Source: Mobula hypostoma
Lineage: Eukaryota
Direction of reading: 5' to 3'
Assembly: GCF_963921235.1 (NCBI RefSeq)
Contig: NC_086108.1
Span: 63,614,001-63,678,000 of the forward strand
Length of the DNA stretch: 64,000 nt
Position numbers and translations under genes: made by a program. This document shows, in pieces, positions 9,134 through 42,550 of this stretch. The notes beneath the pieces are model-generated. The model searched no databases, had not been told where the DNA came from, and saw nothing but the letters and a program-made list of their open reading frames with translations. Every line of letters begins with the position of its first letter. Position 1 is the stretch's first letter.

Positions 9134-9137
<4 letters not shown>

Positions 9138-13429: not shown

Positions 13430-15830
13430 GGCATAGAAGAAGAATTAGGCCATTCAGCCCACTGAGTCTGCTCCACCATTTCATAAAGGCTGATCCCTTT
13501 CCCTCTCAACCCCTATTTTCCTGCCTTTTCCCCAGAACCTTTCACCTCTCACTAATCAAGAACCTATCAACCTCAACCTTAAATGCACTCAGTGACCTGG
13601 CCTCCATAGCCACCTGTGGCAACAAATTCCACACATTCTCCACCCTCTGGCAAAAGAAATTTCACTTTATCTCTGTTCTAAATGGATATCCCTCTAAGTT
13701 GAGGCTATGCTCTCTGGTCGTTGATGCGCCCTACCAAAGGAAACATCCACTTCATATCCACTCTATCTAGGCCTTTCAGCATTTGATAGGTTTCAATGAG
13801 ATCCCCTCCCCCTCATTCTTCAAAACTGCAGTGAGCACTGGCCCAGAACCTTCAATCACTGCTCATATGATGACCCGTTCATTCCTGGAATCATTCTCGT
13901 GAGCCTCCTCTGAGCCTTCTCCAATGTCAGCATATCCTTTCTTAAATAAGGGACCAAAACTGCTCCCAATGCTCCATGAGGTTTCACCAGTGCCTTATAC
14001 AGCCCCAGCATTATATCCTTGCTTTTATATTCTAGTCTTCTTGAAATGAATATTAATATTGCATTTGCCTTCCTCACCACCAATTCAACCTACAAACTAA
14101 TGTTTAGAGAATCCTGTGTGAGTACTGCCCAATCTGTTTGCACCTCACATTTTTGAATTTTCTCCCCATTTAGAAGATAGTCTAATAGAAAATTGTTTGC
14201 CTGATCAAACACTTCCTAACACTGTATCCATCTGCCACCTCTTTGCCCATTCTCTTAATCTGTCTAAGTCCTTCTCAGCCTCTCTTCTTCCTCAACCCTA
14301 CGTGCCCTTGCACCAGTCTTAGCTTTGTCTGCAAACCTGACCACAAAGCCATCAATTTCATCATCTAAATCGTTGACATATTGTACAATGTAAAAAGAAG
14401 CAGCTCAATACATACCCCTTGGAATGTCTCTAGTCACTGGCAGCCAATCTGAAAAGGATCCTTTTATTCTCACTCTTTGTCTCCTGCCAATCAGCCAATG
14501 CTGTATCCATGCTAGTATTTTTCCTGTGCTCTTATCTTGTTAAGCAGCCTTGGTGCAGCACCTTATCAAAGCCTTTTGAAAATCCAACTACAGAACATCC
14601 ACTGATTTTCCTTTGTCTATCCTGCTTGTTATTTATTCAATGAATTCCAATGGATTTGTCCGACAAGGTTTTCCCTCAAGGAAATCATGCTGACTTTGGC
14701 TTATTTTGTCATGTACCTCCAAGTACCCCAAAACCACATCCTTAATAATCAACTTCAACATCTTCCCAACCACTGAGGTCTGGCTAACTTGCCTAAAAGT
14801 CCTTTGCAACACACACAAAATACTGGAGGAACTCAGCAGGCCAGGCAGCATCAATGGAAAAGAGTAAACAGCCGACGTTTCAAGCTGAGACCCTTCATCA
14901 GTACTGATTTTGTGTGTGTGTTTGGATTTCCAGCATCTGCTGATTTTCTTGTGTCTATAAATTCCTTTCTTCTGCCTTCCTCACTTCTTGAAAGAGTGTA
15001 ATGACATTTGCAATTTTCCAGTCCTCTGGAACCATGCCAGAATCTATTGATTCTTGAAAGATCATCACTAATGCCTCCACAATCTCTTCAGCTACCTCTT
15101 TTAGAACCCTTGGGTGTAGTCCATCAGGGTCCAGGTGGCTTCTCTATCTTTATCTTTCACCATCTCCCTAGGGAAAGCAACTGCACTCACTTCTGTCCCT
15201 TGATACTGTGAAACTTCCAGCATACTACTAGTGAAGATTGATGCAAAATACAAATTCAGTTCGTCTGCCATTTATTGGCTAGCTTACTTTCATAGTTCAT
15301 CTTCTCTCCACCTCCCCCCCCACCACCACCAATGATTTCTTACTCACTCTTCCTTCAGTTAGTCCTGACGAAGGGTCTCGGCCTGAAACGTCGACTGCGC
15401 TTCTTCCTATAGATGCTGCCTGGCCTGCTGCGTTCACCAGCAACTTTGATGTATGTTGCAATGATTTCTTTAGTTGCCTACTGGTCATTTTTAAAAAATT
15501 CCCAATCCTTTAACTTTCTGCTGATTTTTACTCTATTATATGCCCTCCTCTTTCGCTTTGACTTCCCTTATCAGCAACAGTTGTGTTATCCTGCCTTTAG
15601 AATACTTTCTCTTCTTTGAAGTGCATCTATTCTGTGCCTTCTGAATTGCTCCCAGAAACTCTAGCCATTAAAATTCTGCCATCGTCCCTGCAAGTGTCCC
15701 CTTCCAGTCAAGTTTGGCCAGCTCCTCTCTCATGCCTCTGTAGAGCTGATACATTTAACTTTAGCTTCTATGTTTCAAATTGTAGGGTAAATTTTATCAC
15801 AGTTTCCTAATGGTTCCATTACCTTAAGCT
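13430..15830 (-). mobile_element. Decayed CR1 LINE ORF2 with inserted Penelope pseudo-LTR pieces
   Basis: LYKALVKPH, LEKAQRRLTRMIPG and ISQSQHDF motifs. Confidence 0.75.
15361..15396 (+). ncRNA. Minimal hammerhead ribozyme motif (Penelope pLTR type)
   Basis: AGUC-CUGACGA-A-GGG(UCUCGG)CCU-GAAAC-GUC-GACU: full core, helix I AGUC/GACU, GUC cleavage triplet. Confidence 0.75.
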
Positions 15831-16217
15831 CAAGTTCATTTCACAACACCCAATTAATATGGGTGGATGCCCAGAGGTCTTGTTGGTCATTGTGGGCCAG
15901 ATGGCTGTTTATGTCTCCTTCTCACCCGGACTCACCCTGGGACTATTGCTGGCTCCTGAGCAGAACAGACTTGTATAGAACTCAACTAGTGAATGTTGTT
16001 GATTTGCATATTTATTTAACTTTTGCAACATGCAGGGGTAATGATGAAACTCAGCAACCATATTAAGATGGTCCCTTGGGCTTCTGTTCAGTTGTATTTT
16101 GGTTTTTAATGAGTTGAATACCGATATATCTTCTAGCCTTTCCTCACATCCAAGCTTAGATATAGAAGATTGAAACTTTCTATTTCATTTGACATGTATT
16201 TCTTGTTTGGTCATTAG

Positions 16218-16359
16218 GGCACACAAGTAATTGCAAACCTCTACTCAGTGTTGATGGACAAATCAGAATGGGAAACACCTGAGGAATTTAATCCTGAACA
16301 CTTCCTGGACAAAAATGGGAAATTTGTGAGAAAGGAAGCATTTGTCCCTTTCTCTGGAG
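16218..16359 (+). CDS. CYP2 copy A exon 8 ([47 protein letters not shown])
   Basis: cattag acceptor, gtaaat donor, 142 bp, meander/PERF-equivalent FNPEHFLD motif. Confidence 0.95.
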
Positions 16360-17435
16360 GTAAATAGTTTCATTTATGTCACAGTATATGGCAGAAATTA
16401 GTAATTAGTTGAATATTTTAGGAGTGAATGAAAGAAAGAAAGCAGCTTCCTTGCTATTTATTTGGTTCAAGTTACTCGGATTGTACTGTATATCATGTCC
16501 ATTTCTGTCGACCTGACAGATTAACCTTTTACATGTGGGTCCTTCAATAGTTTTGATAGAATGGATACTACAATTTGGAGAATCTTTTAAAACAATCGAA
16601 TGAACAGAAGTTCGTAATCTTTATGGGGAAAGTGACTACAAACTTTTAGCTTCTTCATAATGCTATTTTGTACTAATAAGTAACACAAAAGAAAATCTTC
16701 ATATTCACCATCATTATTCTGACATTTTTATTTTATCTAGCCAACTATAAAGGCAACTTGCATCTCATTTCTGAATATATTATTTATTTTCTAAGATGAG
16801 AGCTTGAAAATATTGAGGGAACAGATTATTTTGAAAAAGGATCTAGTGCTTTCCTGGTGTATGTGACAAATAAACTCTTTTTGGGTTTCCCTGTACAGTT
16901 AATGATAATAACTGATATTTCAATGACAGACTCTGCCATCTTCATCAGGGATGATACCTGGGCTTGTCTTGTCCCGTGGTATTTATGTTGTTTATTAAAT
17001 AGATTATTTTTGCTAGATCATTTACCAACTTCTTTGGTTTGTTATGATATTATCCAATTGATATAATCCTTCCAGGAAGTGCTCTACATGAATAGTCTTT
17101 GGCCTTCTAGGTACCAGGTGGTGTTCCAGAAAGTGGAACCATTTCACTTTCCCCAATACCGTGACTGTAATATGCCTGCTGTGCTGTTCAAACCACATAC
17201 CTCCTTCCAATACACTCTGGATATGGTCAGATATGAGCTGCCATTATATATGAAGCATTTGATCATGCTTATTTATCTGTGTTGTATTAGTTCCTTCAGG
17301 ATAATGGATACAAATTAGAATGAATGTGTATTAAAAATTAAGTTAAACCAACTTTCAGCATTTGCAGTAAGATACATCCATTCATGTTTTTAAATGGTGT
17401 TCATAGTGGAAACCAAGCAAATTACTTCTAGGCTC

Positions 17436-17662
17436 ACATCAAAGTTTCTGGTGAACGCAGCAGGCCAGGCAGCATCTCTAGGAAGAGGTACAGTCGACGT
17501 TTCAGGCCGAGATCCTTCGTCTGGACCCTGAGTCCTGACGAAGGGTCTCGGCCTGAAACGTTGACTGTACCTCTTCCTAGAGATGCTGCCTGGCCTGCTG
17601 CGTTCACCAGAAACTTTGATGTGTGTTGCTTGAATTTCCAGCATCTGCAGAATTCCTGTTAT
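17436..17662. mobile_element. Fold-back Penelope-derived mini-element with 10-bp TSD
   Basis: 92-bp inverted arms (17435-17526 and 17532-17623, 3 mismatches), TSD ttct(a/g)ggctc at 17426-17435 and 17663-17672. Confidence 0.85.
17531..17567 (+). ncRNA. Minimal hammerhead ribozyme motif
   Basis: AGUC-CUGACGA-AGGGUCUCGGCCU-GAAAC-GUU-GACUG. Confidence 0.7.
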
Positions 17663-17984
17663 TTCTGGGCTCCATTCCTTTCTAATCTAAGTAATGTATT
17701 CTGACAGAATTGCTGATCCAGTTGATTCAAATCCAGACTAAGGTCAGCCAATGAAAGAAACTCTTCTCCATTTGTGAAGATATTTTCTGAATCTTATTCA
17801 GGAACCACTGATTGCAAAGATTATACTTCAGCCCCAAAAATTATGTTATGATCGGCAGATAAAGAGAAGATTGTGCTGGGTATTTATACTCGGGGTGCTT
17901 CAATATTTATTCTCGATGCCGGTGAATAGAAAGATTATTTCACATGCCTGTAATTGTATAACGCATATGTCTATTCATTTGCAG

Positions 17985-18160
17985 GAAAATGCAACTGCAT
18001 GGGAGAACCACTGGCTAGAATGCAATTGTTCCTTTTCTTCACTTCTTTAATGCAGAAGTTCAAATTTGTTTTTCCCGTGGGTGTCAAGCCAAGTTTTGAT
18101 GCTGTAATACATCTATTATGCAGCCCTCAGCCATACAAGATATGCGCAGTTCCACGCTGA
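17985..18160 (+). CDS. CYP2 copy A exon 9 (GKCNCMGEPLARMQLFLFFTSLMQKF...AVPR*), carries the heme-thiolate Cys
   Basis: ttgcag acceptor, heme-binding loop, stop TGA at 18158-18160. Confidence 0.95.
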
Positions 18161-18298
18161 ACCAGGAGAGCAGTAGTATCTATTGTATGACACAATACCT
18201 TGGCTCCTTGGACCAGCTTTCTATCTTTCCTCTTTGCAACTCTGAATCCTCTTTAATTCAAGATCACTAAGAAATCTGCCTTTTAAAATCAATATTTC

Positions 18299-18304: not shown

Positions 18305-19841
18305 TGTGTTATTCTAATGCTTTGTGGAAACACGAGGAAAGGAAGCATTCAATTGTAAAGAAGATCAGAACATTCCCTCGATTTAACACTTCTGAAGTAA
18401 CTAAGTATCTCTTTCTGGGTCAGCTCTTCCTGCTAATCAAGGCTAAGAACAACCATCTAACTTCTCTTTAGTCTCTCCCTCACATCTTTCCATCCAACAA
18501 CTGTTCATTGACAGCATCATCTGAAGGCATAAGCCAGTTTTTGCGCAGAAGCCCATGACACATTACAATATCTCTAAATACTCATATCTTCTGTATGTCC
18601 TGATAAAGGATGTTAGTCCATTAACTCTTTATTCCTCTTCATAGATGCTGCCCGGCCTGCTGAGTTCCTTCAGCATTTTCTGTGTGTTACTCTGGATTTC
18701 CAGCATCTGCAGAATCTCTTGTATTTAGTTGTTCCTTCACTACTGTATAAGCAGAAATTTCACAATTTCACAAATCAGTCTTGCTACAAGTTCTTCAGCC
18801 AATGCCAATTCCACTTACTTCTCTAATACTTGTCTGAATTAGACCATTTTTTAAACCTTCGAATAGATTACTTAGATGTTCCTAAGCAAAAATACTTACT
18901 TCTCCTGTAGAACAATAATACTGAGGCCAACAGAGAAGATTTGAATAACTCACAATTGACCAGAGTCATTACTAGAATCATAAACTAACTTGAAGCCATT
19001 AGAAGCTAAACATCTCTACCCTGATTCTTGCCCGGAACTGAATCAGGGGAATGTTTTGGGTGTAAACATCTTCAAATGCTTAATTCTTAATCATCCTTAC
19101 ATGCAAATTCAAATTGCATTTGCATCCTCTGAGATTACTGTAGTGTGTATGTGCTTGCATAAACTTGGACAGCATTCAGCTCTGGGCAGGTATGTAGCAT
19201 GTTATATTCACAATGCACAAACTTGTGGCTATAAAAATCTACAAGAGAAAGTCTCACCACTGTTCTTTGACTTTCAACAAAATCAATACTGTTAAATCCC
19301 CAATTATCAAGATACTTGGAAATACAGATTGGATTGGTTAAAACTTAACTGGATTGGTTAACTAAATACTGTGGTTACAACAATAGATGAAAGGCAGGTT
19401 ATGTTATGATGCATGACTCCCATTTTGGTTCCCTCAAGACACAACTCAGGGGAGCAATAGAAGGCAAAATTAGTGCATCTCCTCCATCATTAAGACATTT
19501 AAAACCATCCCATATATGCAACTCATTTGCTTGTCACCACATCCCCCACTCTTGTACATTTATTCTCTCCACTATCAGCAAACACATCTTGACTATAATG
19601 TGCATCATTACAAAATCATTATTCTGACTTACTTGTTTGGTAACACTTACCATATCCCTAGCTTCTATCTACCTCAAAAGAGAAAATTAGGTGACTTCCG
19701 GCGTCGAGTATGGAGTGAGTTGGTGCGTGTGAGTGTGGCTCCCGATTTTTATTGAAAATCTACCTGTTTATCTTTGCCGTATGCTCGAGATAACTGGATA
19801 CTTACCATTGTGAACAACGCGGGACATAGCTGGACATTGAA

Positions 19842-20736
19842 ATGGCAAGTAGAATGTACCTTCGAAGTAAAGCTGGGGAAAAAGATAGCGAGCCTCGAGC
19901 AAGAAGGCGGATGTTACAGTAATGGCGCCGTTGCTAGTCCCGGACCTGCCCTACCCGATGACTTGGAGAGGCTTCGTTTAGTGCTTATTACTGACATGAC
20001 GCAAGCGGTGCATTCTGCCCTAAAAAGGGAACTTGAAAATGCTTTATCACCAGTGACTGCTACCATGGAACAAATTATGTCTGCTTACGAGACACACGAC
20101 GAACGCATTCGTGAGGTTGAAGACGGCCTGAATGATTACAGTGACCGACTGGTGAGCGCCGAAGCCGCCATTGCAGCGTTGCAGAGCGAAAACGCAGTTC
20201 TGAAGGGAAAGCTAGATGACCTCGAAAATCGGTCGCGGAGATCTAATTTGAGAGTGGTCGGCATTCCTGAAAATTTGGAAGGTTCGGACCCTGTTAAATT
20301 TATGACCGAGTTTTTTGACGAAGTGCTGGGGGCAGATTTTTTCCCAAATCCTCTCGTACTTTCGCGTGCTCACCGAGTCGATGTAAACCATCCGGTGTCT
20401 CTGGAGCCAAGCAAACGAGACCAAGGACGTTCCTGGTTTGCTTTCACTCCTTTCAAGATAAGCAACGCATCACCAACAGACGGAAGCAGGAGCTGTATTT
20501 CCGCGGACACCGCGTGTTTTTTTAATGAAGATTTTAGTGCGGAGCTGGGTAAAAAAGGAGCAGCTTTCAAGGGGGTGAAATCCCTGCTTTACGGGAAAGG
20601 GGTCAGGTTCGGCCTCTTGTATCCCGCCCAGCTCCGGATCATGCATGAAGGTAAAAAGCATTATTTCGATACACCAGAGGCGGCCAAAGAGTTTTACCAT
20701 TCGCGCTGGGGAGAACAAGAACGAGAAGAGCAATGA
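19842..20736 (+). CDS. L1 ORF1p (coiled coil plus RRM/CTD), frameshifted
   Basis: LDDLENRSRRSNLRVVGIPE, RAHR and LLYPAQLRI motifs. The likely ATG at 19842 is out of frame with the main ORF. Confidence 0.85.
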
Positions 20737-21343
20737 CTTTTTTTTAGGTTATTCGTGCAGCATTGAAGGGGCCTCATGCCGAAGCAAACTGTTAATTTTC
20801 ACAATCCACTTCTTTGTTCATTTTTTCCAGTTTAATTTGTGGAACGCGATCGGGTCGAACTGCTATGCTGCCGAAACTGATTAACAAAAACTTTCAACCA
20901 GCAAGATGTAAAAATTTGGGATTTATATCTCGGGTGTTTAAGTTGCCCAGTGTGTTTTTTTTTGTTTTTAATGCTTAGCTTGACCTGTGTTATCTTTAGC
21001 CTATATGTTATATTAAAGGTAGTAAAAGTGATAGGATAAATTTTAAGGAGGGGAGCCACCCTAGATTAGATTGAAAGTTGGGTTGTATGGGGGACGCCTT
21101 GTAAGTTTTTTGTTGGGTACTGCCTGCGATCATCCTCAATTGGGGAGGTAGATCTAGGCTTCGGGGGTTAATTGGGTTTTTTTGTTTGTGTAAAGGGGTG
21201 GGGGGAGTGTTTTGGGGGATTACCATGACAGTTTATTCTTTTGTGTGTTACAGATTGATCAGACTTTCTTTTCATTGTGCGTTATTGTGTGCAACTTATA
21301 CCCTCGCACTGTTTTGGATTGTAGGCCCTGTGTGTCTTTTGAA

Positions 21344-24300
21344 ATGGTTAACATGAGTGCAGCTGATGGAGGCCACCCTGTGAGGTTTATTTCTTGGAAT
21401 GTAAAGGGGCTCAATGGTCCGGTTAAAAGAGCTAAAGTTTTCTCTCATCTGAAACAATTAAAAGCTGATATACTATTTCTACAAGAGACACATTTAAGAG
21501 TGGAGGACCATAATAGACTTCGTAAAGCATGGATTAGTCAGGTTTTTCATTCCAGATTTAATAGTAGGTCCAGGGGGGTGGCAATATTAATCACCAAAAG
21601 AATGCAGTTCACACCATCTGATGTAATCAGTGACCCTAATGGTCGCTTTATTATAGTCTCTGGCTCTCTCTTTCAGATACCTGTTATTTTGGTAAATGTT
21701 TATGCTCCTAATTGGGACGATGTCCAATTTGCAAATAGGGTTTTGTCATTAATACCTAACCTGAATACACATAAGCTAATCTTTTCCGGAGATTTGAACT
21801 GTGCTATTGACCCACTGCTTGATAGGTCTTGCCCTAGGGGAACATTTTCTGGTATGGCAAAGGCCTTCTCGATGTTTATGCAACAAAATGGTTATATGGA
21901 TCCTTGGAGATTTTTGAATCCATCAGTTAGGCAATTCTCTTTCTTCTCTCATGTTCACCACTCCTATTCCAGGCTAGACTATTTCTTTATAGATAATTCC
22001 TTGATACCTGTGATTAGACAAATTGAATACACTGCTATAGTTATATCTGATCACTCGCCCGTGAAACTGGACCTATGTTTTCCTTTAAACGTTAGAGAAC
22101 GGCCTCTGTGGAGACTTAACCCCCTTTTGCTTTCTAATGAGAAATTTTGTAGTTATATATCGGCTAACATTGACACATTCTTCGAGACTAACAAAACTGA
22201 GTCGGTATCGTACTCTTTACTTTGGGAAACTTTAAAAGCTTACTTGAGGGGTCAAATAATATCTTATACTTCACATGCCAATAAAGAGCGTAGGAAGGAA
22301 ATGCAAGTGTTATTGAAATCTATTTGGGACCTGGATAGAAAATACTCTGAGGCACCCACTGTGGAATTATATAAAAGCCGGGTTGATTTGCAAGCGAAGT
22401 TTAATCTTCTATCTACAAACCTATCAGAACAATTAATTCTTAAGACACATGGCCTGTATTATGAATATGGTGACAAGGCAAGCCGGCTTATGGCTCATCA
22501 GTTGAAACGTCAAGCTGCATCACGACTTATTCCTCAGGTAAGAGACATGCACCAGAACTTGACAAGCAATCCAAAAGAGATTAATAACATCTTTGCAACT
22601 TTTTATTCCTCTCTGTATGCCTCAGAGTTCCCCTCAGATAAAACAAATATGGAACGTTTTTTAGATAATTTGGAAATACCAACTCTTGAACCAGAGGAAG
22701 TGGAGAACCTAGATCGGGCTCTTGGGCAGGAAGAGATTAATAATGCCATTATGGCTATGCAGAGTGGTAAGTCCCCAGGTCCTGATGGTTATCCAATAGA
22801 ATTTTATAAGAAATTTAAGGATAAGCTCACACCGGTCCTTCTAGAAGTGTTTCAGGAATCTTTGGAGAATGGCTCCTTACCCCCTTCTCTTTCACAGGCA
22901 GCTATTTCACTACTTCTTAAAAAGGACAAGGACCCGACTCAATGTGGATCATATCGCCCCATTTCACTTTTGAATGTAGATGTGAAAATTTTGGCTAAAG
23001 TGCTTGCATGTCGTTTAGAACATCCCCTTCCCAAGATAATTTCAGATGATCAAACAGGTTTTATTAAAAATCGCTATTCTTTTTTTAATATCCGTCGACT
23101 GGCTGATGTGGTTTATTCACTGAGTGATTCTCCAAGTCCAGAGGTTGTTATCGCCTTGGACGCGGAGAAGGCATTTGATAGAGTGGAATGGGTATACTTA
23201 TTTAGTGTTTTGGAGAAATTTGGATTTGGCAGGATATTTATAGCTTGGGTTAAGCTATTATACCACTCGCCTTCAGCGTGTATACAGACAAATTATTTTC
23301 GATCTGGCTATTTCCCATTAAAACGTGGCACTCGCCAAGGCTGCCCACTGTCCCCTCTTCTTTTTGCAATTGCAATTGAGCCTCTTTCTATTGCAATTAA
23401 GTCAACTACATTATTTCAAGGTGTTATAAGAGGGGACATGGAACACCGTGTTTCCCTATATGCTGATGACCTCTTACTTTATGTTAGCGACCCTATAGGT
23501 AGTAGTCCTGCTATTGTGTCATTATTAGGTCAATTCGGAGCCTTCTCTGGCTGTAAACTGAACTTTCAAAAAAGCAAATGCTTTCCCATTAATAACTTGG
23601 CCCTACAGATCCGACAGGAATCTTTGCCCTTTCCTTTATCTCAAGATGGTTTTGTATACCTAGGAATGCATATTACTCGCTCTTTTACATCTCTGTTTGA
23701 AGCTAACCACAGGCCTCAGGTTAGCCAAATGAAGGCTGATTTCGAGAGATGGCGCAGTTTACCCCTTACTATAGCTGGGAGAATTCAGTCAGTGAAAATG
23801 ACTATACTTCCTAGATTTCTCTATTTGTTTCAGTGTTTGCCAGTTTTCTTATCTAAGTTATTTTTTAAATCAGTTGATCAAGCTATAACCTCCTTTGTTT
23901 GGGAAAATAAGGTCCCAAGGGTTAATAAGCGCATTCTTCAAAGAGGTCGTGAGATAGGTGGAATGGGTCTTCCCAGCTTTATTCATTATTACTGGGCATC
24001 GAACATTCAAAAAGTATTATTTTGGCTTCACCGGCCAGATATAATCTGGTGCCTGCTTGAGTCACGATCTTGCCACTCCTCGTCTCTCCCAGCTTTGGTG
24101 TATTCTTCCTTACCATTGAAATCCTCTCAATTCACATCTAACCCGGTCGTGCTCTCTACCCTCAAAATTTTTAATCAATTTCACTGCCACTATAAGTTCA
24201 TATCAGCTTCAGTTTTGGGCCCCATTCATAAAAACCATTTATTTCCTCCCTCCACATTCGATTCAGCTTTTAGACAATGGGGTTTGAACGGTCTTATGCG

Positions 24301-25143
24301 CATTAAGGATTTGTATACTGATTACATATTTGATAGTTTTGATAACCTGCGCAGTAAGTATGGCCTTCCGCATAATCATTTTTTTTAATATCTGCAGATT
24401 CGCCACTTTGTCAAGGGAAAAATTTCCCTCTTTTCCTGTTCTACCACCTGCTATGTTATGGGAAAAATTCACTCTTAGCTTTAACAATAAGGGGCTGATT
24501 TCTGAACTATACTCTCAGCTGATGTCTTTGGGAGTTCAAGATCTAAACAAAACTAAGAGTAGGTGGGAGGACGACCTCGGTATGGACCTTGCAGAAGAAT
24601 ATTGGGCAAAAGTATTGAATAGGGTTCATTTCTCATCATCATGTGCTAGACTGGGGCTCATACAATTCAAAGTTTTACACAGGGTACATTTAAGTAAAGC
24701 CAGACTGGCAGACATATACCCTGGGACAGACGCTGGCTGTGACAGGTGTTCCTTCTCTCCGGCTGGTTTAATACATGCATTTTGGTCATGCCCTCGGCTT
24801 GATGACTATTGGGCACTGGTTTTTAAAATTATCAGTGAGGTTTTGGGGGTGACAGACCTTGCCCACTTATAGCTGTATTTGGTGTGGCAGATGATGATTT
24901 GGGTTTAAATGCAAGCCAGTCGGATATCATTGCATTTACATCGCTATTGGCCCGTAGGAGAATTTTGCTGGTTTGGAAATCTGCCGCTCCCCCAACTGCT
25001 GCTGCTTGGTTAAAGATGTAATGTTTTTTCTGAAATTAGAAAAGATTAAATCCACTTTGAGGGGGTCTGTGAAAAAGTTCTATTTGAAATGGGGACCTTT
25101 CTTATCATATTTTGGGAGTCTTAAGGAATTACCTACTAGTTGA
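21344..25143 (+). CDS. L1 ORF2p (APE endonuclease, reverse transcriptase, C-terminal CCHC), frameshifted near 24385
   Basis: SWNVKGLN, LQETH, SDH, GTRQGCPLSP and YADD motifs; CDRC...HAFWSC in the downstream frame. Confidence 0.93.
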
Positions 25144-25639
25144 GGGCATTTGATTGTACTTAGGAAGTTGCCTCCCATTTAACACACTTATAATTTACCT
25201 CACAGGGTGGTTGATGAATTGTAAATACGAGTGTATTTTGGATCATCTGACATGTTGCAGATGTGTATGAGCTGTCGTATTGAAGTAGTGTGGGGGTACG
25301 GTTGTGAAATGTCCATACTTGTATTTGTGAATTGTTGTGTTGTAGATATATTAGCTGCCATGATATGTTCGGGGAGGGTGGGTGGGGGGGAGGTTTGTTT
25401 TGGGGGTACGATACTAAAGCAAAATGGAGGAAAATGTAATCCATTATATATTCTGTATTGTGTCATTCCTTCAATAAAAATAAATATATTAGAAAAGAGA
25501 AAATTAGAGATTTTATAAGAATATCAACACCAAGTAGCTTCCCATCAAGTTTCATGTCATTCTGATTCAGAAAGTTTTTTTATGTTCCCTGGTTCGTCAA
25601 AATTCTGAACTCCCTACCTGACAGTACAGTTGGTAAACA

Positions 25640-27240
25640 CAAGAAATTCTGCAGATGTGGGAAATCCAAAGCAATGTACACAATGCTGGGAGGAACTCAG
25701 TAGGTCAGGCAGCATCAATGGAAATGAACAAACAATCAACATTTTGGGCTGAGACTCTTCTTCAGGACTGGAAAGGAATGAGGAAGATATTGGTTGGGGC
25801 AGTTTGTTTCTAGAGGTTGAGACAGAAATTGAGAAAGGGCAAGGAGATATCAGAAATATATCAGGTGAATTTAAGAGTAGGGTGGAAGCTGAAGACGAAG
25901 TTGGTGAACTTGACGAGCTCAGCACGGGCACATGAAGCAGCCCAAAGCAGGTATCAACGTAGTGGAGGAAGAGTTGGGGAATGTTACCAGGGAAGGCATG
26001 GAACATTGACTGTTCTACATAGCCAATTAAAAAGCAGGGAAAGCTGGGGCCCATGTGGGTGCCCATGGTCACACCTCAAGTCTAGAGAAAATGGAAGGAG
26101 CTGAAGGAGAAATTGTTGAAGACGAAGACAGTTCTGCCTGATGAAGGAGAGTGGTGATAGAGTGAAACTAGTTGGTCCTTTTATTGACAAAGAAGCAGAA
26201 AGTTTTAAGGCCTTCTTGTTGGGGAATAGAAGTGTATAGGGACTGGACACCCATGGTGGAAATGAGGTGGTCAGGGCAAGGGAATTGAAAGTTAGTGAGA
26301 AGAGCGGGAGCATGAGAAATATCATGGATGTTGGTGGGAAGGGACTGAACCAAGGATGATAGAATGGTGTTGAGGTATGAGGACATAAGTTCAGTGGGGC
26401 AGGAGCTTGATGAGATCTGTGATGGTCTTGCAGACAGTTTTCTGATGGTTCTGAGTGGAGTCCTCTTCAAGGGGTAGGCATGAGGAGGTGGCTGAGAATT
26501 GTTGCCAGGTTTCATCAAGATAGAGTTCAGTGTGCCACACTGCAGTGTAACCCTTTTCACTGCAGGTTTGATGGCAAGGTTAGGACTGGTGTATAGAGAG
26601 TGGAGAACAGTGTATTCAGAGGGAGTAAGTTTTGAGGAGGAGAGAGGAGTGCTGAGGTTGAGCCGGCTGATATCTTATTGGCAATTAGAGACTAAAAGAT
26701 GCAGTGAAGGCAGGGAACCAATGTGGGGAATTCAAGAAGAGGAGGAGCATCGGAAATGGGAGAAGTGTGGGGTGGGAAATTCTTGCCGAAGAAGTGGGCT
26801 TGGAGGTGGAGGTGATGGAAAAGCAGCTTGGTGTTGGGGGACAAAGTCAAGGCCTTTGCTGAGGTCATCTCAGAGAAGGAAATGGTGAAGGCACAGCAGA
26901 GATTAGATGTGGCATGAGAATTGGAGGTGTCATAGGAGAAGGGAATTTTGTGGTGTTCAGGGAAGGTAGGGTGGGACGAAGATGGTGGCTCCGAGGACCC
27001 AAGAAGTGACCTTGGATCCTGAGGGACCTGGAATTGGAGGGTGGTGGTGGTGGTGGGGGAAGGGGAGACGGGAGGCCCAGCAGCAGCGAGGTAGGTTGAG
27101 GCTGGAGCAAGATCGAAACACTGCACGTTTTGCAGTCTGATAGCATCTAGGGTCACAGGAACCAGCATTGGTGATGAGAGAATCTGAGCTCTGGATCCCC
27201 TTCGATCCAGTACAATCGGTATATTTTTATCACAATTCAA
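25640..27240 (-). mobile_element. Decayed Penelope-like retroelement (N-terminal and RT remnants, pLTR end)
   Basis: VQSLYTSIP and MGTHMGPSF...LHYVD RT remnants, degenerate hammerhead-type motif near 25733-25770. Confidence 0.75.
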
Positions 27241-28744: not shown

Positions 28745-30810
28745 TAGAAGAAAGGAAACTATAGTTAGTCTGACCTCATTGATGGAGTCAATTATTAAGG
28801 ACGGGGTTTCAGGGTACTTGGAAGCACATCATAAAATAAGCCATAGTCAGCATGGTTTCCTCAAGGGGTAATCTTGCCTGACAAATCTGTTGGAATTCTT
28901 TAAAGAAATAACAAGCAGGAACATCGGTTGATTTTGTATCCTTGAATTTTCTGAAGGCCTTTGACAAGGTGCCACACATGAGGCTGCTTAACGAGGAAAG
29001 ATTCTAGCATGGATAAAGCGGTAGCTGATTGACAGGAGGCAAAGAGTGGAAATAAAGGGAGTCTTTTCTGGCTGACTGGCAGTGACTGGTGGTGCTCCAC
29101 AGGGTCTGTACCGGGACTGATTTATTTATTTTGTATGTCAATGATTTGGATGATGGAATTGATGGCTTTGCTGCAAAGTTTGTAGATGATATGAAGGTAG
29201 AGTGCCAATAAAAAGTACTGACACCCCCCTGGAAGTTTTCATGTCTTATTGTTTTACAACATTGAATCAGTGGATTTAATTTGGCTTTTTAGACACTGAT
29301 CAACAGAAAAGATTCTTTTGTGTCAAAATGAAAACAAATTTCTGCAAATTGGTCTAATTATTAAACCCACACTAATTGATTGTATAATTACTCAACCCCT
29401 TCAAGTCAGTATTTAGTAGATGCACCTTTGGCAGCAATTGCAGCTTTGAGTTTGTGTGGATAGGTCTCCCTCTGGACACTGCAATGTTTCCCCATTCTTT
29501 ACAAAACTGCTCAAGCTCTGTTAGATTGCTTAGGGATCGTGAGTGAACAGCCGTTTTCAAGTCCATCCACAAGTTGTCAATTGGATTGAGGTATGGACTC
29601 TGACTTGGCCACTCCAGGATATTAACTTTGTTGTTTTTAAGCAATTCCTGTGTAGCTGTGGCTTTATACTTGGAGTCATTGTCTTGCTGGAAAATAAATC
29701 TCCTCCCAAGTCGCAGTTCGCTTGCAGATTGCATCATGTTTTCCTCCAGCATTTCCAGGAATTTTGCTGCATTGATGTTACCCTCAAGTTTCACAAGCCT
29801 TCCTGGGCCTGCTGCTGTGAAGCATCCCCACAGCATGATGCAGCCACCACCTTCCTTCTACGGTAGAGATGGTGCATCCTTCTGCAGACTCATGCTTCCT
29901 CAGAACTACTTGTCCCTCCCCCTATGTTTGTATTATCCGCAAAGATGGCCACACATCATCAATTCTGTCTTCCAGATCGCTGACATATAATATGAAAAGT
30001 AGCGACCCAACACCAGCGACTACAGAAGTCTTCATCAGCAGGCAAACAGAAATGTTTATTTACACTCTTTGCATTCTGCCAGGCAGCCAATTTTGTGTCC
30101 ATGGTAGTATCTTTGCTGTAGAGAATGGGCAAAGAAATGGCAGATGGAAGACACTGTAAGGTAATGTATGGCCATGCATTTTGATACAAAGAATAAAGGC
30201 ATAGATAATTATCTAAATGGGCAGCGTATTCTGAAATCAGAGGTGCAAAGGGACTTGAGAGACCTGGTACAGGATTACCTAAAGGTTAACTTGACTTGCA
30301 GGTTGAGTCAGTAGCAAGGAAGACAAATTGAAGAGGACCAGAATATGAAAACAATGATGCAATGCTGAGGCTTTATAAGGCATTGGCCAAACCACATATG
30401 GAGTATTGTGAGCATGTTTAGGCCCCATTTCTAATACTGGCACTGGAGAGGGTCCAGAGGAGGTTTATGAAAATTATCATGGGAATGAAAGGGTTAATGT
30501 ATGAGACGTATTTAATAGCTGTTGGCCCATATTCACTGGATTTCAGAAGAATGAGGGGAATCTCTTTTAAACCTACTGAATACTGAAAGGCCTAAATAGA
30601 GTAATGGGAGAGCTGAGGACCGGAAGACACAGCATCAGAATATGAGGACATAACTTTACAACAAAGGTGAGGAGGGATTTCTTTAGCCTGAAGGTTGTGA
30701 ATCTGTGGAATTTTTTGCCACGGACAGCTGTACAGGCCAAGTCATTGAGTATATTTATAATCACAAGTCAATAGGTCCTTGATTACTAGGGGTTTCAAAA
30801 GTAATGGGAA
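28745..30810 (+). mobile_element. CR1 ORF2 relic interrupted by a Tc1 fragment
   Basis: SLTSLMESIIKD...SQHGFLKG and the downstream CR1 3' sequence. Confidence 0.7.
29200..29865 (-). mobile_element. Tc1-family transposon fragment (transposase C-terminus plus one TIR)
   Basis: ORF 29372-29836 with WGCF, FQQDND and WPSQSPYLNPI motifs; TA followed by a gagtgccaataaaaagta TIR-like end. Confidence 0.9.
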
Positions 30811-30819
30811 GAAGTGGAG

Positions 30820-32269
30820 AACAACAGGAATTCTGCAGATGCTGGAAATTCAAGCAACATACATCAAAGTTGCTGGTGAACGCAGCAGGCCAAGCAGCAT
30901 CTGTAGGAAGAGGTGCAGTCGACGTTTCAGGCCGAGACCCTTCGTCAGGACTAACTGAAGGAAGAGTGAGTAAGGGATTTGAAAGTTGGAGGGGGAGGGG
31001 GAGGGGGAGATCCAAAATGATAGGAGAAGACAGGAGGGGGAGGGATGGAGCCAAGAGCTGGACAGGTGATAGGCAAAAGGGGATACGAGAGGATCATGGC
31101 ACAGGAGGTCCGGGAAGAAAGACAAGGAGGAGGGGGGGTGACCCAGAGGATGGGCGAGAGGTATATTCAGAGGGACAGAGGGAGAAAAAGGAGAGTGAGA
31201 GAAAGAATGTGTGCATAAAAATGAGTAACAGATGGGGTACGAGGGGGAGGTGGGGCCTAGCGGAAGTTAGAGAAGTCAATGTTCATGCCATCAGGTTGGA
31301 GGCTACCCAGACGGAATATAAGGTGGTGTTCCTCCAACCTGAGTGTGGCTTCATCTTTACAGTAGAGGAGGCCATGGATAGACATGTCAGAATGGGAATG
31401 GGATGTGGAATTAAAATGTGTGGCCACTGGGAGATCCTGCTTTCTCTGGCGGACAGAGCGTAGATGTTCAGCAAAGCGGTCTCCCAGTCTGCGTCGGGTC
31501 TCGCCAATATATAAAAGGCCACATCGGGAGCACCGGACGCAGTACATCACCCCAGTCCACTCACAGGTGAAGTGATGCCTCAGCTGGAAGGACTGTTTGG
31601 GGCCCTGAATGGTGGTAAGGGAGGAAGTGTAAGGGCATGTGTAGCACTTGTTCCGCTTACATGGATAAGTACCAGGAGGGAGATCAGTGGGGAGGGATGG
31701 GGGGGACGAATGGACAAGGGAGTTGTGTAGGGAGCGATCCCTGCGGAATGCAGAGAGGGGGGGGAGGGAAAGATGTGCTTAGTGGTGGGATCCCGTTGGA
31801 GGTGGCGGAAGTTACGGAGAATAATATGTTGGACCCGGAGGCTGGTGGGGTGGTAGGTGAGGACCAGGGGAACCCTATTCCTAGTGGGGTGGTGGGAGGA
31901 TGGAGTGAGAGCAGATGTACGTGAAATGGGGGAGATGCGTTTAAGAGCAGAGTTGATAGTGGAGGAAGGGAAGCCCCTTTCTTTAAAAAAGGAAGACATC
32001 TCCCTCGTCCTAGAATGAAAAGCCTCATCCTGAGAGCAGATTAACTTTGCCTCCAACTTTCACCCTGCCCTCAAGTTTACCTGGTCCATTTCTGACACCT
32101 CCCTCCCCTTTCTAGATCTTTATGTCTCTGGCTCTGAAGACAGCTTATCCACTGATGTCTACTATAAGCCTACTGACTCTCACAGCTATCTGGACTATTC
32201 CTCTTCTCACCCTGTCTCTTGCAAAAACGCCATCCCCTTCTCGCAATTCCTCCGTTTCCGCCGCATCTG
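30820..32269 (-). mobile_element. Penelope-like retroelement 3' part with intact GIY-YIG endonuclease domain and an inverted 5' segment
   Basis: ORF 31257-31550 YCVRCSRCGLLYIGETRRRLGDRFAEH, pLTR with hammerhead, and 32041-32269 is upstream RT sequence in the opposite orientation. Confidence 0.9.
30917..30952 (-). ncRNA. Minimal hammerhead ribozyme motif in Penelope pLTR
   Basis: Reverse complement reads AGUCCUGACGAAGGGUCUCGGCCUGAAACGUCGACU. Confidence 0.75.
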
Positions 32270-32873: not shown

Positions 32874-35800
32874 ATAGAACATAGAACATAGAATAGTACA
32901 GCACAGTACAGGCCCTTCAGCCCACAATGTTGTGCCGACCTTCAAACCCTGCCTCCCATATAAGTCCCCAACTTAAATTCCTCCATATACTTGTCCAGTA
33001 GTCTCTTAAACTTCACTAGTGTATCTGCCTCCACCACTGATTCAGGCAGTGCATTCCACGCACCAACCACTCTCTGAGTCAAAAAACCTTCCTCTAATAT
33101 CACCCTTGAATTTCCCACCCCTTACCTTAAAGCCATGTCCTCTTGTATTGAGCAGTGGTGCCCTGGGGAAGAGGCGCTGGCTATCCGCTCTATCTATTCC
33201 TCTTATTATCTTGTACACATCTATCATGTCTCCTCTCATCCTCCTTCTCTCCAAAGAGTAAAGCCCTAGCTCCCTTAATCTCTGATCATAATCCATACTC
33301 TCTAAACCAGGCAGCATCCTGGTAAATCTCCTCTGTACCCTTCCCAATGCTTCCACATCCTTCCTATAGTGAGGCGACCAGAACTGGACACAGTACTCCA
33401 AGTGTGGCCCAACCAGAGTTTTATAGAGATGCATCATTACATCGCGACTCTTAAACTCTGTCCCTCGTCTTATGAAAGCTAACACCCCATAAGCTTTCTT
33501 AACTACCCTATCCACCTGTGAGGCAACTTTCAGGGATCTGTGGACATGTACCCCCAGATCCCTCTGCTCCTCCACACTACCAAGTATCCTGCCATTTACT
33601 TTGTACTCTGCCTTGGAGTTTGTCCTCCCAAAGTGTACCACCTTACACTTCTCCGGGTTGAACTCCATCTGCCACTTCTCAGCCCACTTCTGCATCCTAT
33701 CAATGTCTCTCTGCAATCTTTGACAATCCTCTACAATATCTACAACACCACCAGCCTTTGTGTCATCTGCAAACTCGCAAACCCACCCTTCTACCCCAAC
33801 ATCCAGGTCGTTAATAAAAATCACGAAAAGTAGAGGTCCCAAAACAGATCCTTGTGGAACACCACTAGTCACAATCCTCCAATCTGAATGTACTCCCTCC
33901 ACCATGGCCCTCTGCCTTCTGCAGGCAAGCCAATTCTGAATCCACCTGGCCAAACTTCCCTAGAACCCATGCCTTCTGACTTTCTGAATAAGCCTACCAT
34001 GTGGAACCTTGTCAAATGCCTGACTAAAATCCATATAGATCACATCCACTGCACTGCCCTCATCTATATGCCTGGTCACCTCCTCAAAGAACTCTATCAG
34101 GCTTGTTAGACACGATCTGCCTTTCACAAAGCCATGCTGACTGTCCCTGATCAGACCATGATTCTCTAAATGCCCATAAATCCTATCTCTAAGAATCTTT
34201 TCCAACAGCTTTCCCACCACAGACATAAGGCTCACTGGTCTATAATTACCCGGACTACCCCGACTACCTTTTTTGAACAAGGGGACAACATTCGCCTCCC
34301 TCCAAACCTCCAGTACCAGTCTCGTGGACAACGAGGAAATAAAGATCCTAGCCAGAGGCTCAGCAATCTCTTCTCTCGCCTCGTGGAGCAACCTGGGGAA
34401 TATTCCGTCAGGCCCCAGGGACTTATCCGTCCTAATGTATTTTAACAACTCCAACACCTCCTCTCCCTTAATATCAACATGTTCCAGAACATCAACCTCA
34501 CTCATATTGTCCTCACCTCCATCAAGGTACCTCTCATTGGTGAATACCGAAGAGAAGTATTCATTGAGGACCTCGCTCATTTCCAAAGCCTCCAGGCACA
34601 TCTTCCCACCTTTATCTCTGATTGGTCCTACGTTCACTCCTGACATCCTTTTTTTCTTCACATAATTGAAGAATGCCTTGGGGTTTTCCTTTACCCTACT
34701 CGCCAAGGCCTTCTCATGCCCCCTTGCTCTTCTCAGCCCCTTCTTAAGCTCCTTTCTTGCTTCCCTATATTGCTCAATAGACCCATCTGATCCTTGCTTG
34801 CTAAACCTCATGTACGCTGCCTTCTTCCACCTGACTAGATTTTCCACGTCACTTGTCACCCATGGTTCCTTCACCCTACCATTCTTTATCTTCCTCACCG
34901 GGACAAATTTATCCCTAACATTCTGCAAGAGATCTCTAAACATCGACCACATGTCCATAGTGCCTTTCCCTGCAAAAACATCATCCCAATTCACACCCAC
35001 AAGTTCTAGCCTTATAGCCTCATAATTTGCCCTTCCCCAATCAAAAATTTTCCTGTCCTCTCTGATTCCATCTGTCCTTTTCCATGATAATGCTAAAGGC
35101 CAGGGAGCGGTGGTCACTATCCGCAAGTTGCTCACCCACTGAGAGATCTGTGAGTGACCCGGTTAATTACCTAGTACTAGATCTAGTATGGCATTCCCTC
35201 TAGTCGGCCTGTCCACATACTGTGACAGGAATCCATCCTGGACACACTTAACAAACTCTGCCAATTCTAAACACTGGGAACTAATCAGGTGCCAATCAAT
35301 ATTAGGGAAGTTAAAGTCACCCATGATAACAACGCTGTTATTTTTGCACCTTTCCAAAATCTGCCTCCCAATCTGCTCCTCTGTATCTTTGCTGCTACCA
35401 GGGGGCCTATAGAATACCCCCAGTAGAGTAACTGCTCCCTTCCTGTTCCTGACTTCCACCCATGTTGACGCAAAAGAGGATCCTGCTACATTACCCACCC
35501 TTTCTGTAGCTGTAATAGTATCCCTGACCAGTAATGCCACCCCTCCTCCCCTTTTTCCGCCCTCTCTATCCCTTTTAAAGCTCTGAAATCCAGGGATATT
35601 GAGAATCCATTCCTGCCCTGGCGCTAGCCAACTCTCTGTAATGGCCACTACATCATAATTCCATGTATGTATCCAAGCTCCCAGTTCATCACCTTTGCTC
35701 CTGATGCTTCTTGCACTGAGGTACACACATTTCAGCCCTTCTACCTTACTGTCTTTACACCGTTTATTCTGTTTCTCTTTCCTCAAAGCCTCTCTATATG

Positions 35801-36915
35801 TTAGATCTGGCTTTTCTCCATGCACTTCGTTCACTGCTCTATCGCTCTGGGTCCCATACCCCTTGCAAATTAGTTTAAACCCTCTCGAACCATGCTGGCA
35901 AACCTACTTGCAAGGATATTGGTCCCCCTAGAGTTCAGGTGCAACCCATCCAATCTGTACAGGTCCTACCTTCCCCAGAAGAGATCCCAATGATCCAAAA
36001 ATCTAAAACCCTGCTCCCTGCACCAACTGCTCAGCCACGCATTCAACTGCCATCTCCTCCAATTCTTACTATCACTGTCACGTAGCACTGGCAGCAATCC
36101 TGAGAATGCCACCCTTGAGGTCCTGTTCTTCAGCCTTCTGCCTAATTCCCGAAACTCACACTTCAGGACCTCATCCCTCTTCCTGCCTATGTTGTTGGTC
36201 CCAACATGTATCACGACTTCTGGTTGCTTTCCCTCTCGTACCAGGATGTCATGCACCCGGTCAGAGACATCCCGGACCCTGGCACCCGGGAGGCAACAAA
36301 CCGTGCGGGTGTCCTTCTCACGTCCACAAAATCTCCTGTCTGCTCCCCTGACTATAGAGTCTCCAGTAACGACAGCTCTCCTCTTCTCCATCCCACCCTT
36401 CTGCACCACAGGGTCAGACTCAGTGCCGGAGGCCCTGCCACCGTGGCTCACACCTGGTCGGTCATCCCCACCAACAGTATCCAGGACGGTAAACTTATTA
36501 TTCAGGGGAATGGCTACAGGGGTGCTCTGCACTACCTGTCTGCTCACCTTCACTTTCCCCCCTCTGACTGTCACCCAACGACCTGCTTCCAACAGCCTAG
36601 GTGTGACTACCTCCCTGTAGCTCTCATCTATGACTGCCTCATTCTCCCTTATGAGTCGAAGGTCATCCAGCTGCTGCTCCAGATTCCTTACACGGTCTTC
36701 CAGATTGCCCAGCCGTATGCACTTCTGGCAGATGTGACTCTGCGGGAGAGGGGAGTTCCCCCAAAACTGCCACATCTCACATGAGAGGCACATCACCATC
36801 TCAGGAGACATTGTAAAAACTAACTGCGATCTAGCTTGTCCTCCACCTCTTCTCGTCGAAGCCTCTCGAGTCAAAGCCTCAAAACTCCACTCCTTCACTG
36901 GCCCACTCACGCACT
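32874..36915 (-). mobile_element. Near full-length CR1 LINE (ORF1 zinc finger plus SGNH esterase, ORF2 APE-RT), with stops and frameshifts
   Basis: ORF1 35966-36910 (CLSC..CQKC, GDSIVR, HVGTN), ORF2 pieces 35163-35834, 33960-35135 and 33042-33953 (FADD), short TTCTATG-type tail. Confidence 0.93.
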
Positions 36916-37349
36916 CAAACAGTCAATGTTTTGGGTCTTGGACTGAAATATCAACAATTTTTCCATAGATGCTGCCTGGCCTGCTGAATTCCTCCAGCAT
37001 TTTGTGTGTGTGGTGCTTACCAGGAAGCAGCTCACCAGTACCCTCTCAAGAGTAACTTCAGATAGACAATAAATATGGTTCATAGCCAGAAAATGGTTTG
37101 TTTGTACTCAACCTTGGAACTGGATTATCAGTCTCATTGTAGTCACTGGAACTGTTCTCCAATATTTTTTACAGGTGATATCCCAGGGCAGTGAAACATG
37201 AATTTTAAAATAATCCGACTATGAAGCAGCAAATCTTGAATGAATTTGAGTAATAACTTCAGCAAAAGTAATTTCAATCAAGTTCATTTCCATTTTTAAA
37301 TAATAGGTATTTTTGAAAACTATCACAAATATTAAAAATATCTGAAGTG

Positions 37350-39335: not shown

Positions 39336-39349
39336 TTACTTTTTACTTT

Positions 39350-40779: not shown

Positions 40780-41071
40780 AATGCTGATTGGACAGTGTCA
40801 AAGGGAAACAAGTTCAGCCTCATTTTAATTCATGGAAAATGACCAGAAAGTACAATTATCTGTGAAAGGACTTCCAGTTTAAGCCTGGATCTCATCACAA
40901 TAGTTGCAGTCTTCTGGAATTCACAAAGGCTCTTGAGTCTCTCTTGCTTTCTGCATGATCTAAAACAGTTAATAACTGAGTGATCTTGTAAATTGGGTAA
41001 TCTGAGTTTGGCAGTTTTTCTGAACAGCTTTTTAATCTGTTGGAGAGACTGTACAACGGTGCTAGCCTAGA
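40780..41071 (+). promoter_or_regulatory. Putative proximal promoter/5' UTR of CYP2 copy B
   Basis: Non-repetitive sequence upstream of the ATG, inverted CCAAT (ATTGG about 40787) and an HNF1-like gttaataactg (about 40968). Motif matches are weak. Confidence 0.3.
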
Positions 41072-41275
41072 ATGGAAGTTCAGAATCTTTCCTTTTTAAA
41101 TCTGTTCTCAAGAGAGGTGTGGACCGTTGCAGTGTTTTTATTTGTTTTCTTGATTGTGTTTGATGTTCTCCACACTCGTGTTCCCAAGAATTTTCCACCT
41201 GGTCCCTTCGGACTGCCGTTTTTCGGTAATATCTTTCAGCTGGACCTAAAGAATCCTCATCTCCAGTTTTGCAAG
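41072..41275 (+). CDS. CYP2 copy B exon 1 (membrane anchor plus NFPPGPFGLPFFGNIFQL)
   Basis: ATG, hydrophobic ER anchor, PPGP hinge, gtaatg donor. Confidence 0.95.
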
Positions 41276-41483
41276 GTAATGTACAGCATCGAGGAAATTT
41301 GTTCAGAAATGTAACTGTGCTTGTACTGCTGCCACAAGACAGCAAATTTCACATTATGTGTCAGTGGTAATAAATCTGTTTCGTTTTCCAAAAGTATTTA
41401 GTAGTTATAAGATAATTGCAATAAAAATGGTGACAATGTTGCCAGTCTGTCAACACCTGTTAGGAATATACCATTTTATTTAA

Positions 41484-42550
41484 ACACAAAATAATCTGCA
41501 GATGCTGGGGTCAAAGCAACACTCACAACATGCTGGAGGAACTCAGCAGGTCGGGCAGCATCCGTGGAAATGATCAGTCAACGTTTCAGGCCGGAACCCT
41601 TCGTCAGGACTGAAGAGGGAAGGGGCAGAGGCCCTATAAAGAAGGTGGGGAGAGGGTGGGAAGGAGAAGGCTGGTAGGTACCAGGTGAAAAACCAGTAAG
41701 GTGAAAGATAAAGGGGTGGGGGAGGGGAAGCAGGCAGGTGATAGGCAGGAAAGGTGAAGAAGGAATAGGGGAAAACACAATGGGTAGTAGAAGGAGGCGG
41801 AACCATGAGGGAGATGATAGGCAGCTGGGGGAGGGGGCAGAGTGAAATAGGGATAGGGGAAGGGAGGGGGAGGGAATAACCAGAAGTTGGAGAATTCTAT
41901 GTTCATACCAAGGGGCTGGAGACTACCTAGACGGTACATGAGGTGTTGCTCCTCCAACCTGAGTTTAGCCTCATCATGGCAGTAGAGGAGGCCATGTATG
42001 GACATATCTGAACGGGAATGGGAAGCAGAGTTGAAGTGGTTGCCTACCGGGACATATGTGAATGGGAATTTTATTTTGTGAAACACATACTTAGCTGATG
42101 GTATGAACCTCAATTTCTCAAATTTCCAAAATTTCCAGTAACGTGCCCCCTGCCTTCACCATTCCCCATTACCCACTCCCTGTTCACCATTCCCTTTTCC
42201 CTCTCTCACCTTATCTCCTTGGTGCCCATTACCTCTCTCTGATGCTCTGATGTTCCTCCCCACTTTTCTTTCTTCCATGGCCTTCTGTCCTCTCTTATTA
42301 GATTTCCTCTTCTCCAGCCCTGTATGCCTTTCATCAATCAACTTCACAGCTCTTTACTTCACCCCTCCAACTCCCAGTTTCACCTATCATGTTGTTTCTC
42401 TGTCCCCTTCCCCCACCTTTTAAATCTACTCCTCATCTTTTTTTTCTCCACTGCTGCTGAAGGGTCTTGATCCAAATCATTGACTGCACTCTTTGCCATA
42501 GCTGCTGAATAGCCTGCTGAGTTCCTCCAGCATTTTATGTGTGTTATTTC
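41484..42550. mobile_element. Two oppositely oriented Penelope 3'/pLTR fragments in intron 1 of copy B
   Basis: HFNSASHSRSDMSIHGLLYC on the minus strand (41484-42050) and a plus-strand pLTR at 42115-42550. Confidence 0.8.
41575..41612 (-). ncRNA. Minimal hammerhead ribozyme motif
   Basis: Reverse complement reads CAGUC-CUGACGA-AGGGUUCCGGCCU-GAAAC-GUU-GACUG, with a 5-bp helix I. Confidence 0.75.

Follow-up and report, generated by a model that had tools for sequence, protein, structure and literature searches.

The question raised by this locus is whether the short hammerhead motifs scattered through it form a family of small mobile ribozymes in their own right, or are parts left behind by a larger retrotransposon. 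The window, meaning the whole stretch of 64,000 nt analyzed here, comes from Mobula hypostoma (GCF_963921235.1, NC_086108.1, positions 63,614,001-63,678,000), and all copy counts given below refer to this window only. According to our analysis, the motifs are very probably the minimal type I hammerhead carried in the 3' pseudo-long terminal repeat (pLTR) of an abundant Neptune-type Penelope-like element (PLE) of rays, all copies being insertion products of this retrotransposon.

Hammerhead motifs in the window

Four intact cores had been listed in the original prediction and all of them are present, at 15361-15396 (+ strand), 17531-17566 (+), 30917-30952 (-) and 41574-41613 (-). Each displays helix I AGUC/GACU, CUGACGA, an extra A, a 4-bp helix II and GAAAC directly followed by GUC or GUU, that is, the CUGANGA and GAAA core with an NUH triplet, helices I and II, and no helix III loop. 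The predicted cut sites are located at 15392/15393, 17562/17563 (GUU triplet), 30921/30920 and, for the hammerhead at 41574..41613, which belongs to another subfamily having a 6-bp helix I and GUU, at 41580/41579. A strict pattern derived from the family itself gave five matches (these four plus 55391-55424) against none in 100 shuffles; a generic core pattern gave ten against 1.68 expected, eight of which are family members.

Moreover, a profile built from six seed copies returned 21 rows, 18 of them at E<1e-7 (six of those being the seeds), while the best row in ten shuffled windows had E=0.55. Once three weak rows and three segmental-duplicate rows were removed, 15 rows at 11 loci were kept, of which 14 are hammerhead remnants and one is a tail-only piece. 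The degenerate copies predicted near 6350, 14870, 25735, 55390 and 63230 were all recovered, two of them with a different status: the copy near 55390 is nearly intact, with the canonical G10.1-C11.1 pair and a change of ACGU to AUGU as its sole alteration, and the one near 63230 is the segmental duplicate of that near 6350. The first reading had overlooked a copy at 17491-17526 (-), placed head-to-head with 17531, as well as those found by the profile search at 1081/57964, 6523/63401, 18596, 36925 and 42450.

Rfam covariance models at E<=5 detected no hammerhead in the window and returned three weak unrelated matches only, a result that would be expected since the motif lacks helix III. Viral contigs gave no match to the pLTR motif. 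The 12 metagenome matches to it were all discarded as chance, having no ribozyme upstream.

Relationship to a Penelope-like retrotransposon

The ribozyme is linked to a coding region. The ribozyme at 30917-30952 begins 305 nt beyond the stop of an open reading frame (ORF) encoding a reverse transcriptase (RT), a zinc linker and a GIY-YIG endonuclease. The 3' part of this ORF (31257..32041, - strand) includes the RT end, the CX4CxxC linker and the endonuclease, with a frameshift near 31760; it is followed on the same strand by a pyrimidine-rich 3' untranslated region (UTR) extending from the ORF stop to the hammerhead (30953..31256), and by pLTR sequence to about 30823 (long end). The ORF piece 31257-31778 (-) matches the GIY-YIG family of Pfam with E=3.7e-4 and 21.2 bits, just under the 22.6 cutoff; the best hit is to a Mobula protein (89%), and the next ones are from Hypanus and sharks. 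These relatives carry RT plus GIY-YIG, and the order of RT followed by a C-terminal GIY-YIG is also seen in the window, in fragments only. Four of the 11 loci are joined to RT or endonuclease remains and two more keep the 3' UTR only. This linkage, together with the published consensus, bears out the proposal that the motifs represent the minimal type I hammerhead of a Penelope-like pLTR.

The same ORF piece has a C-x4-C-x2-C linker between RT and endonuclease; a CX2-5CxxC linker is a mark of Neptune and Nematis (PMC8557442), and in the available text of a vertebrate survey only Neptune and Poseidon were found (bioRxiv 10.64898/2026.07.22.740005). A zebra-shark relative (P0008) extends into the peptide LMKGLRPKRQ, which resembles the translated core of the window copy, so that the link between ORF and hammerhead is found beyond rays. 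Full-length ray ORFs were also sought, and none was recovered.

The ray gene models P0004, P0012, P0019 and P0020, which bear host gene names, have exons made of sequence from the Penelope ORF or pLTR, and the entry of pLTR ends as spurious exons (P0004, P0019, P0020) calls for caution with such models. Sequencing runs were compared with this copy, among which X21 proved unrelated, with two reads aligned. In X1 (DNA), 239,604 contigs aligned on 30796-31800, their summed depth not being equal to copy number; X17 and X9 are labelled RNA by guess and consist of contigs, hence give no measure of expression level. Relative to X1, depth in X17 and X9 drops several-fold to tenfold upstream of ~31680 (31670-31800), which could mean that transcription starts internally, within the linker region, although contigs cannot show it.

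Ribozyme fold and conservation

Over the 15 rows, helix positions are paired in 82% of cells, against 17-44% for slid partners. Seven copies were folded, of which all have the extra A between A9 and 10.1 and six have the ACGU palindrome; the consensus of minimal PLE hammerheads has an extra nucleotide after A9 and a palindromic 15.1-16.1 (PMC4209133). The suggestion that the palindrome would allow an intermolecular helix III is compatible with the published dimer model. For the five whole-core copies, nearest-neighbour energies (tertiary contacts excluded) place the strand-swapped active dimer at -11 to -20 kcal/mol, two monomers at -20 to -27 and the best dimer fold at -27 to -33, so that the predicted active dimer is 5-11 kcal/mol less stable than two monomers; the predicted folds tend to engage the core GACG in pairing with CGUC. 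This unfavourable dimer fold agrees with the low activity reported for minimal PLE hammerheads (PMC4209133). As monomers, none of the seven short pieces folded better than shuffles (z -1.2 to +0.3).

The excess conservation or covariation whose absence was to count against the original prediction was found in part. No covariation was seen between copies, the value being 0.214 versus 0.208 for shuffled rows, with 184 of 500 shuffles equal or higher (15 rows of one genome, a duplicate pair included). The 10.1-11.1 pair is G-C in seven rows, G-U in seven and other in one, the four named copies having G10.1-U11.1 in place of the G-C of the consensus. Between the twin arms of a palindromic insertion at 17436-17658, four of 94 sites are different, three of them within the ribozyme, including U4 and GUC versus GUU; the GUU triplet is probably a product of CpG decay after insertion. 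Judged by the lack of covariation and by these core differences, inserted copies look neutral. On the other hand, subfamilies with unlike flanks have the ribozyme in common: loose contig ends accumulate at 30916 and 30952 (369 and 363 contigs), which are both ribozyme borders, as would be produced by other subfamilies that keep the ribozyme and differ in their flanks, and for this reason the ribozyme looks selected at the family level. The block immediately downstream is likewise well conserved.

Ends and junctions of the inserted copies

All nine mapped copies span the predicted cut site. In eight of them homology ends past the cut in one of two classes, at +61, +64, +67 and +68 or at +98, +98, +98 and +102, and the gap between both classes corresponds to the optional 30-40 bp Penelope tail. 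In Anolis the tail equals the spacing of two internal sites at which the RT starts; the template there is mainly uncut RNA, and the ribozyme depends on the protein (PMC11167929). The hammerhead at 15361, for instance, is held in a 5'-truncated copy (about 15305-15459, +) with ~55 nt of 3' UTR and the short 3' end.

Four loci are head-to-head pairs, with the tail on a single arm in three of the four; a one-ended tail on paired arms has been described for PLEs (PMC3846280). The palindromic insertion at 17436..17658 has two pLTR ends and the tail on its right arm only, the arm containing the hammerhead 17531..17566; the left arm contains the twin 17491..17526 (-), in which A replaces U4 and one pair of helix II is disrupted. 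Its predicted fold is a single hairpin of -191.5 kcal/mol and, as one long RNA hairpin, the pair would be unable to form the dimer. The insertion at 41482..42553 is a composite, its left arm made of pLTR with tail, 3' UTR and endonuclease end, and its right arm of ORF end, 3' UTR, a decayed hammerhead near 42450 and a short end. At 14806..14958 a decayed hammerhead (14870-14905, -) is joined head-to-head to a tail-only piece, and the decayed inverted unit at 36917..37020 has its junction on the helix II GGG.

Ten boundary pairs were tried for target duplications and scored against 200 random pairs. Repeats adjoin both ends in four of them: 18 bp for 41482..42553 (41464-41481 / 42554-42571), a candidate 14 bp for 17436..17658 (17422-17435 / 17659-17672), a candidate 14 bp for the copy at 25636..27207 and a candidate 10 bp for 14806..14958. 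The copy at 30952 also displays a 5' inversion, an RT segment of the same insertion lying on the + strand at 32040..32269, with a shared 2-nt AT as microhomology at the junction and 5 nt duplicated at the breakpoint. This inversion resembles L1 twin priming (PMC2837659); among the literature matches listed, none described an L1-style 5' inversion for PLEs.

A mechanism of insertion may be proposed with Anolis Poseidon as a guide (PMC11167929). The element protein would cut both strands of an AT-rich target, reverse transcription would start within the RNA at one of two sites ~65 or 100 nt beyond the cut site, and the RT would read across the uncut ribozyme. Synthesis would mostly halt early, and the complementary DNAs of both target ends would be joined head-to-head. 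In active elements the ribozyme would probably work slowly, as strand-swapped dimer and/or with the element protein, trimming a tandem precursor RNA. The inserted copies are mostly silent relics that have decayed since insertion.

Alternative explanations

Several points weigh against a Neptune-type Penelope origin by this route. The end positions were chosen by eye from an alignment of nine copies (A1); the ninth mapped copy (55425) ends at ~+8 and the left arm at 36917 ends ~8 nt past the cut site, both outside the two end classes. Only the 18-bp repeat 41464/42554 (score 12) exceeds the 200 random pairs, scores of 7-8 being reached also by 64 and 20 of them, and target duplications were sought at 15361, 18596, 30952, 36925 and 55389 with none found. 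The arms of 41482-42553 have a common target duplication and yet are only 67% alike, which suggests two templates or two steps. The placement in Neptune would follow from the linker motif, shared with Nematis, and not from an RT tree, and self-cleavage, whether by a dimer or assisted by protein, is putative here. Finally, three of the 11 loci have their start at the ribozyme or within it, a larger share than smooth truncation would suggest, seven of the 11 have no ORF remains, and a joint in X1 runs from 30952 to 30842 (depth 310, kind not printed, possibly head-to-tail).

These last three observations would suit the retrozyme-like non-autonomous family suggested by the original prediction, in which short non-coding units would be excised by the ribozyme, circularised and re-inserted by Penelope protein. 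Two more loci could go either way as to their start, some deleted or inverted junctions reach a contig depth of 170-700 in X1, and pLTR-derived retrozymes have been published, one cartilaginous fish included (bioRxiv 10.64898/2026.07.22.740005). Nevertheless this reading is not supported by the structure of the copies, which form no tandem monomers, end at Penelope tail positions instead of the cut site, and keep ORF remains at four of the 11 loci and 3' UTR at two more. Tandem Repeats Finder (TRF) gave six rows in the window with a longest period of 30 and no tandem repeat above it, and the neighbouring hammerheads 6349/6523 are one decayed pair ending an ORF-bearing copy. In a circular-RNA model the unit would presumably be bounded by the cut site, which all nine mapped copies cross, and the three short inverted units have three distinct junctions. 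Depth in X1 over the pLTR is 2.4x the ORF mean and 1.06x the last ORF bin, leaving no large ORF-less excess, and the best 15 X1 joints listed (544 further rows; some uncounted) reach at most 698 against a summed depth of ~2e7. Published animal retrozymes, moreover, carry canonical hammerheads in tandem repeats (PMC7229834). We consider such a family very unlikely, although small derived sublineages may exist, and the follow-up thus removes a false lead.

Three further proposals concern what the ribozyme does at its place in the Penelope-like element or in the host. That its 5' edge and stems act as a stop or joining hot spot for the RT would add to the Penelope explanation and not substitute for it; we hold this as a tentative possibility, somewhat short of even chances. 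Of the five inversion junctions found in the window, three are placed inside or at the 36-nt ribozyme, including one on the helix II GGG/CCC, and four of the 27 joints listed touch 30951-30952, two of these opposite-strand (X1, X17), where a uniform distribution would give 0.11 (P=5e-6). However, alignments of other subfamilies end at 30952 and inflate the joints there, the 27 joints are taken from several hundred rows across runs and five window junctions are a small sample, short truncations are favoured in any case, and palindromes at pLTR 5' ends have already been described (PMC3846280). The intron of D. virilis Penelope ends at helix I (PMC4209133; PMC2377424), and the 3' UTR could similarly be an intron with its acceptor AG at the start of helix I, splicing then remodelling helix I and switching the ribozyme. 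A pyrimidine tract and AG do precede UCCUGA in long copies, but the entire UTR is pyrimidine-rich and the AG is required for helix I anyway. Gene model P0004 exits the ORF at its last codon and P0020 enters near the ribozyme, whereas P0019 retains homology upstream of the AG; a translated search with the ribozyme region gave two gene models from six candidates, one for and one against splicing. A single X17 contig omits 30952-31270, without GT..AG ends, and depth over the UTR dips relative to X1 in runs whose RNA label is a guess and whose contigs give no level. On the whole, splicing appears improbable to us. Least credible, to the point of being nearly dismissed, is that intronic copies are functional host elements cutting pre-mRNA of a CYP2 cytochrome P450 gene as an in-cis dimer of 15361 with 17531. 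The two lie in sense orientation 2.2 kb apart, within introns 7 and 8 of a single CYP2 copy, but 17531 is trapped with its antisense twin in a hairpin of 92 bp, the predicted active dimer carries the energy penalty given above, a stop interrupts exon 7 of the host CYP2 copy, and neither covariation nor the twin arms give a signal of selection. Nothing that can be read from the window indicates a host function.

Remaining copies and genomic context

The other copies are in various states of decay. At 25636..27207 (-) an internally deleted copy passes from an RT region through ~30 nt of UTR to a decayed hammerhead (25734-25769), and the near-intact hammerhead at 55389..55426 (-) has 3' UTR upstream. 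An old partial-tandem remnant (3047..6630, +) consists of an endonuclease piece with UTR followed by RT to endonuclease, UTR and decayed hammerheads at 6349 and 6523, and has its duplicate at 59930-63510. A 540-bp palindromic insert with internal repeats, resembling a miniature inverted-repeat transposable element, breaks the old Penelope RT at 3942-4480 and 60825-61362. The remaining two are a decayed pLTR copy with tail at 18596..18732 (+) and an old divergent pLTR copy at 969..1084 (-), duplicated at 57833-57967. A segmental duplication relates 1-6778 to 56887-63656 with 96.6% identity and contains CYP2 exon 6 and several repeats.

A tandem CYP2 cluster occupies 2800-18200 and 41140-59900 on the + strand; its exon and intron labels are tentative ones assigned from motifs. 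The 15361 copy and the palindrome lie in introns 7 and 8 of the first CYP2 copy, and the 41611 hammerhead is antisense in intron 1 of the next. The first copy may be a pseudogene, since in exon 7 (near 10928) TGA occupies the position of the ExxR arginine, and in exon 9 (near 17995) the heme motif has a cysteine where an arginine is usual. Neighbouring elements include a near-complete long interspersed nuclear element at 19756-24872 (+), whose ORF1 is of coiled-coil type and whose ORF2 (~1,000 aa) encodes endonuclease and RT, and its broken relative at 44725-49759. Two long fragmented elements (33042-36922 and 51550-54803, -) have RT frames and an esterase-like frame upstream, and we take them to be CR1-like. 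A DDE_3 transposase fragment of Tc1 type is found at 29372-29857 (-).

Abundance and comparison with known systems

Five strict copies in 64 kb correspond to 78 per Mb (95% 25-182; one window), and with the 4.3-Gb stingray genome as a yardstick (PMC12946260) this single window would extrapolate to 1-8 x 10^5 copies per genome. Reported numbers are 126,247 hammerheads in axolotl (PMC7229834), and ~9,000 in Xenopus and ~4,000 in coelacanth per genome (PMC4209133). It is a rather doubtful idea that rays hold ~10^5 near-intact hammerheads, at a density exceeding every vertebrate value consulted, that head-to-head joins prefer ribozyme stems and sometimes use two templates, and that ACGU pairing brings templates to the cut ends; if true, so many natural junctions would allow a direct test of what the ribozyme contributes to Penelope integration. 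What hammerheads do in PLEs that carry an endonuclease is described as an open question (PMC8557442, PMC11167929), and a family as abundant as this one, which combines two classes of tail with numerous head-to-head junctions, offers good material for inferring the integration mechanism from genomes.

When compared with the metazoan PLE hammerheads of Cervera and De la Pena 2014 (PMC4209133; Xena, Poseidon, Neptune of fishes), the ray motif is alike in topology, palindrome, extra nucleotide and pLTR site, and it occurs likewise mostly as single dispersed copies with some close opposite-strand pairs; it is unlike them in its 4-bp helix II and in the G10.1-U11.1 of the youngest subfamily. Ray or shark hammerheads were found neither among the literature matches listed nor in the available text of PMC4209133, and a 2026 preprint sampled one cartilaginous fish; our analysis extends the 2014 observation to rays. 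Non-LTR animal retrozymes (PMC7229834; bioRxiv 10.64898/2026.07.22.740005) are similar in being type I, in their short non-coding pieces and in their pLTR origin, whereas the window copies are without tandem arrays and without helix III, and have their ends away from the cut site.

Poseidon of Anolis carolinensis (Frangieh et al. 2024, PMC11167929) has the same two 3' ends defining the tail, and its use of an uncut RNA template with extension of both target strands would yield head-to-head arms such as those seen here. It differs in that the linker of the ray element is Neptune-type, that the Poseidon ORF starts inside the ribozyme, and that the ray system is known from sequence alone. Finally, endonuclease PLEs (Adineta, PMC3846280; Craig et al., PMC8557442) share with the ray copies the 5' truncation, partial tandems and inverted 5'-truncated arm, as well as the tail at one end, target duplications and solo pLTRs, the candidate duplications being of 10-18 bp here versus 8-10 bp in those elements.

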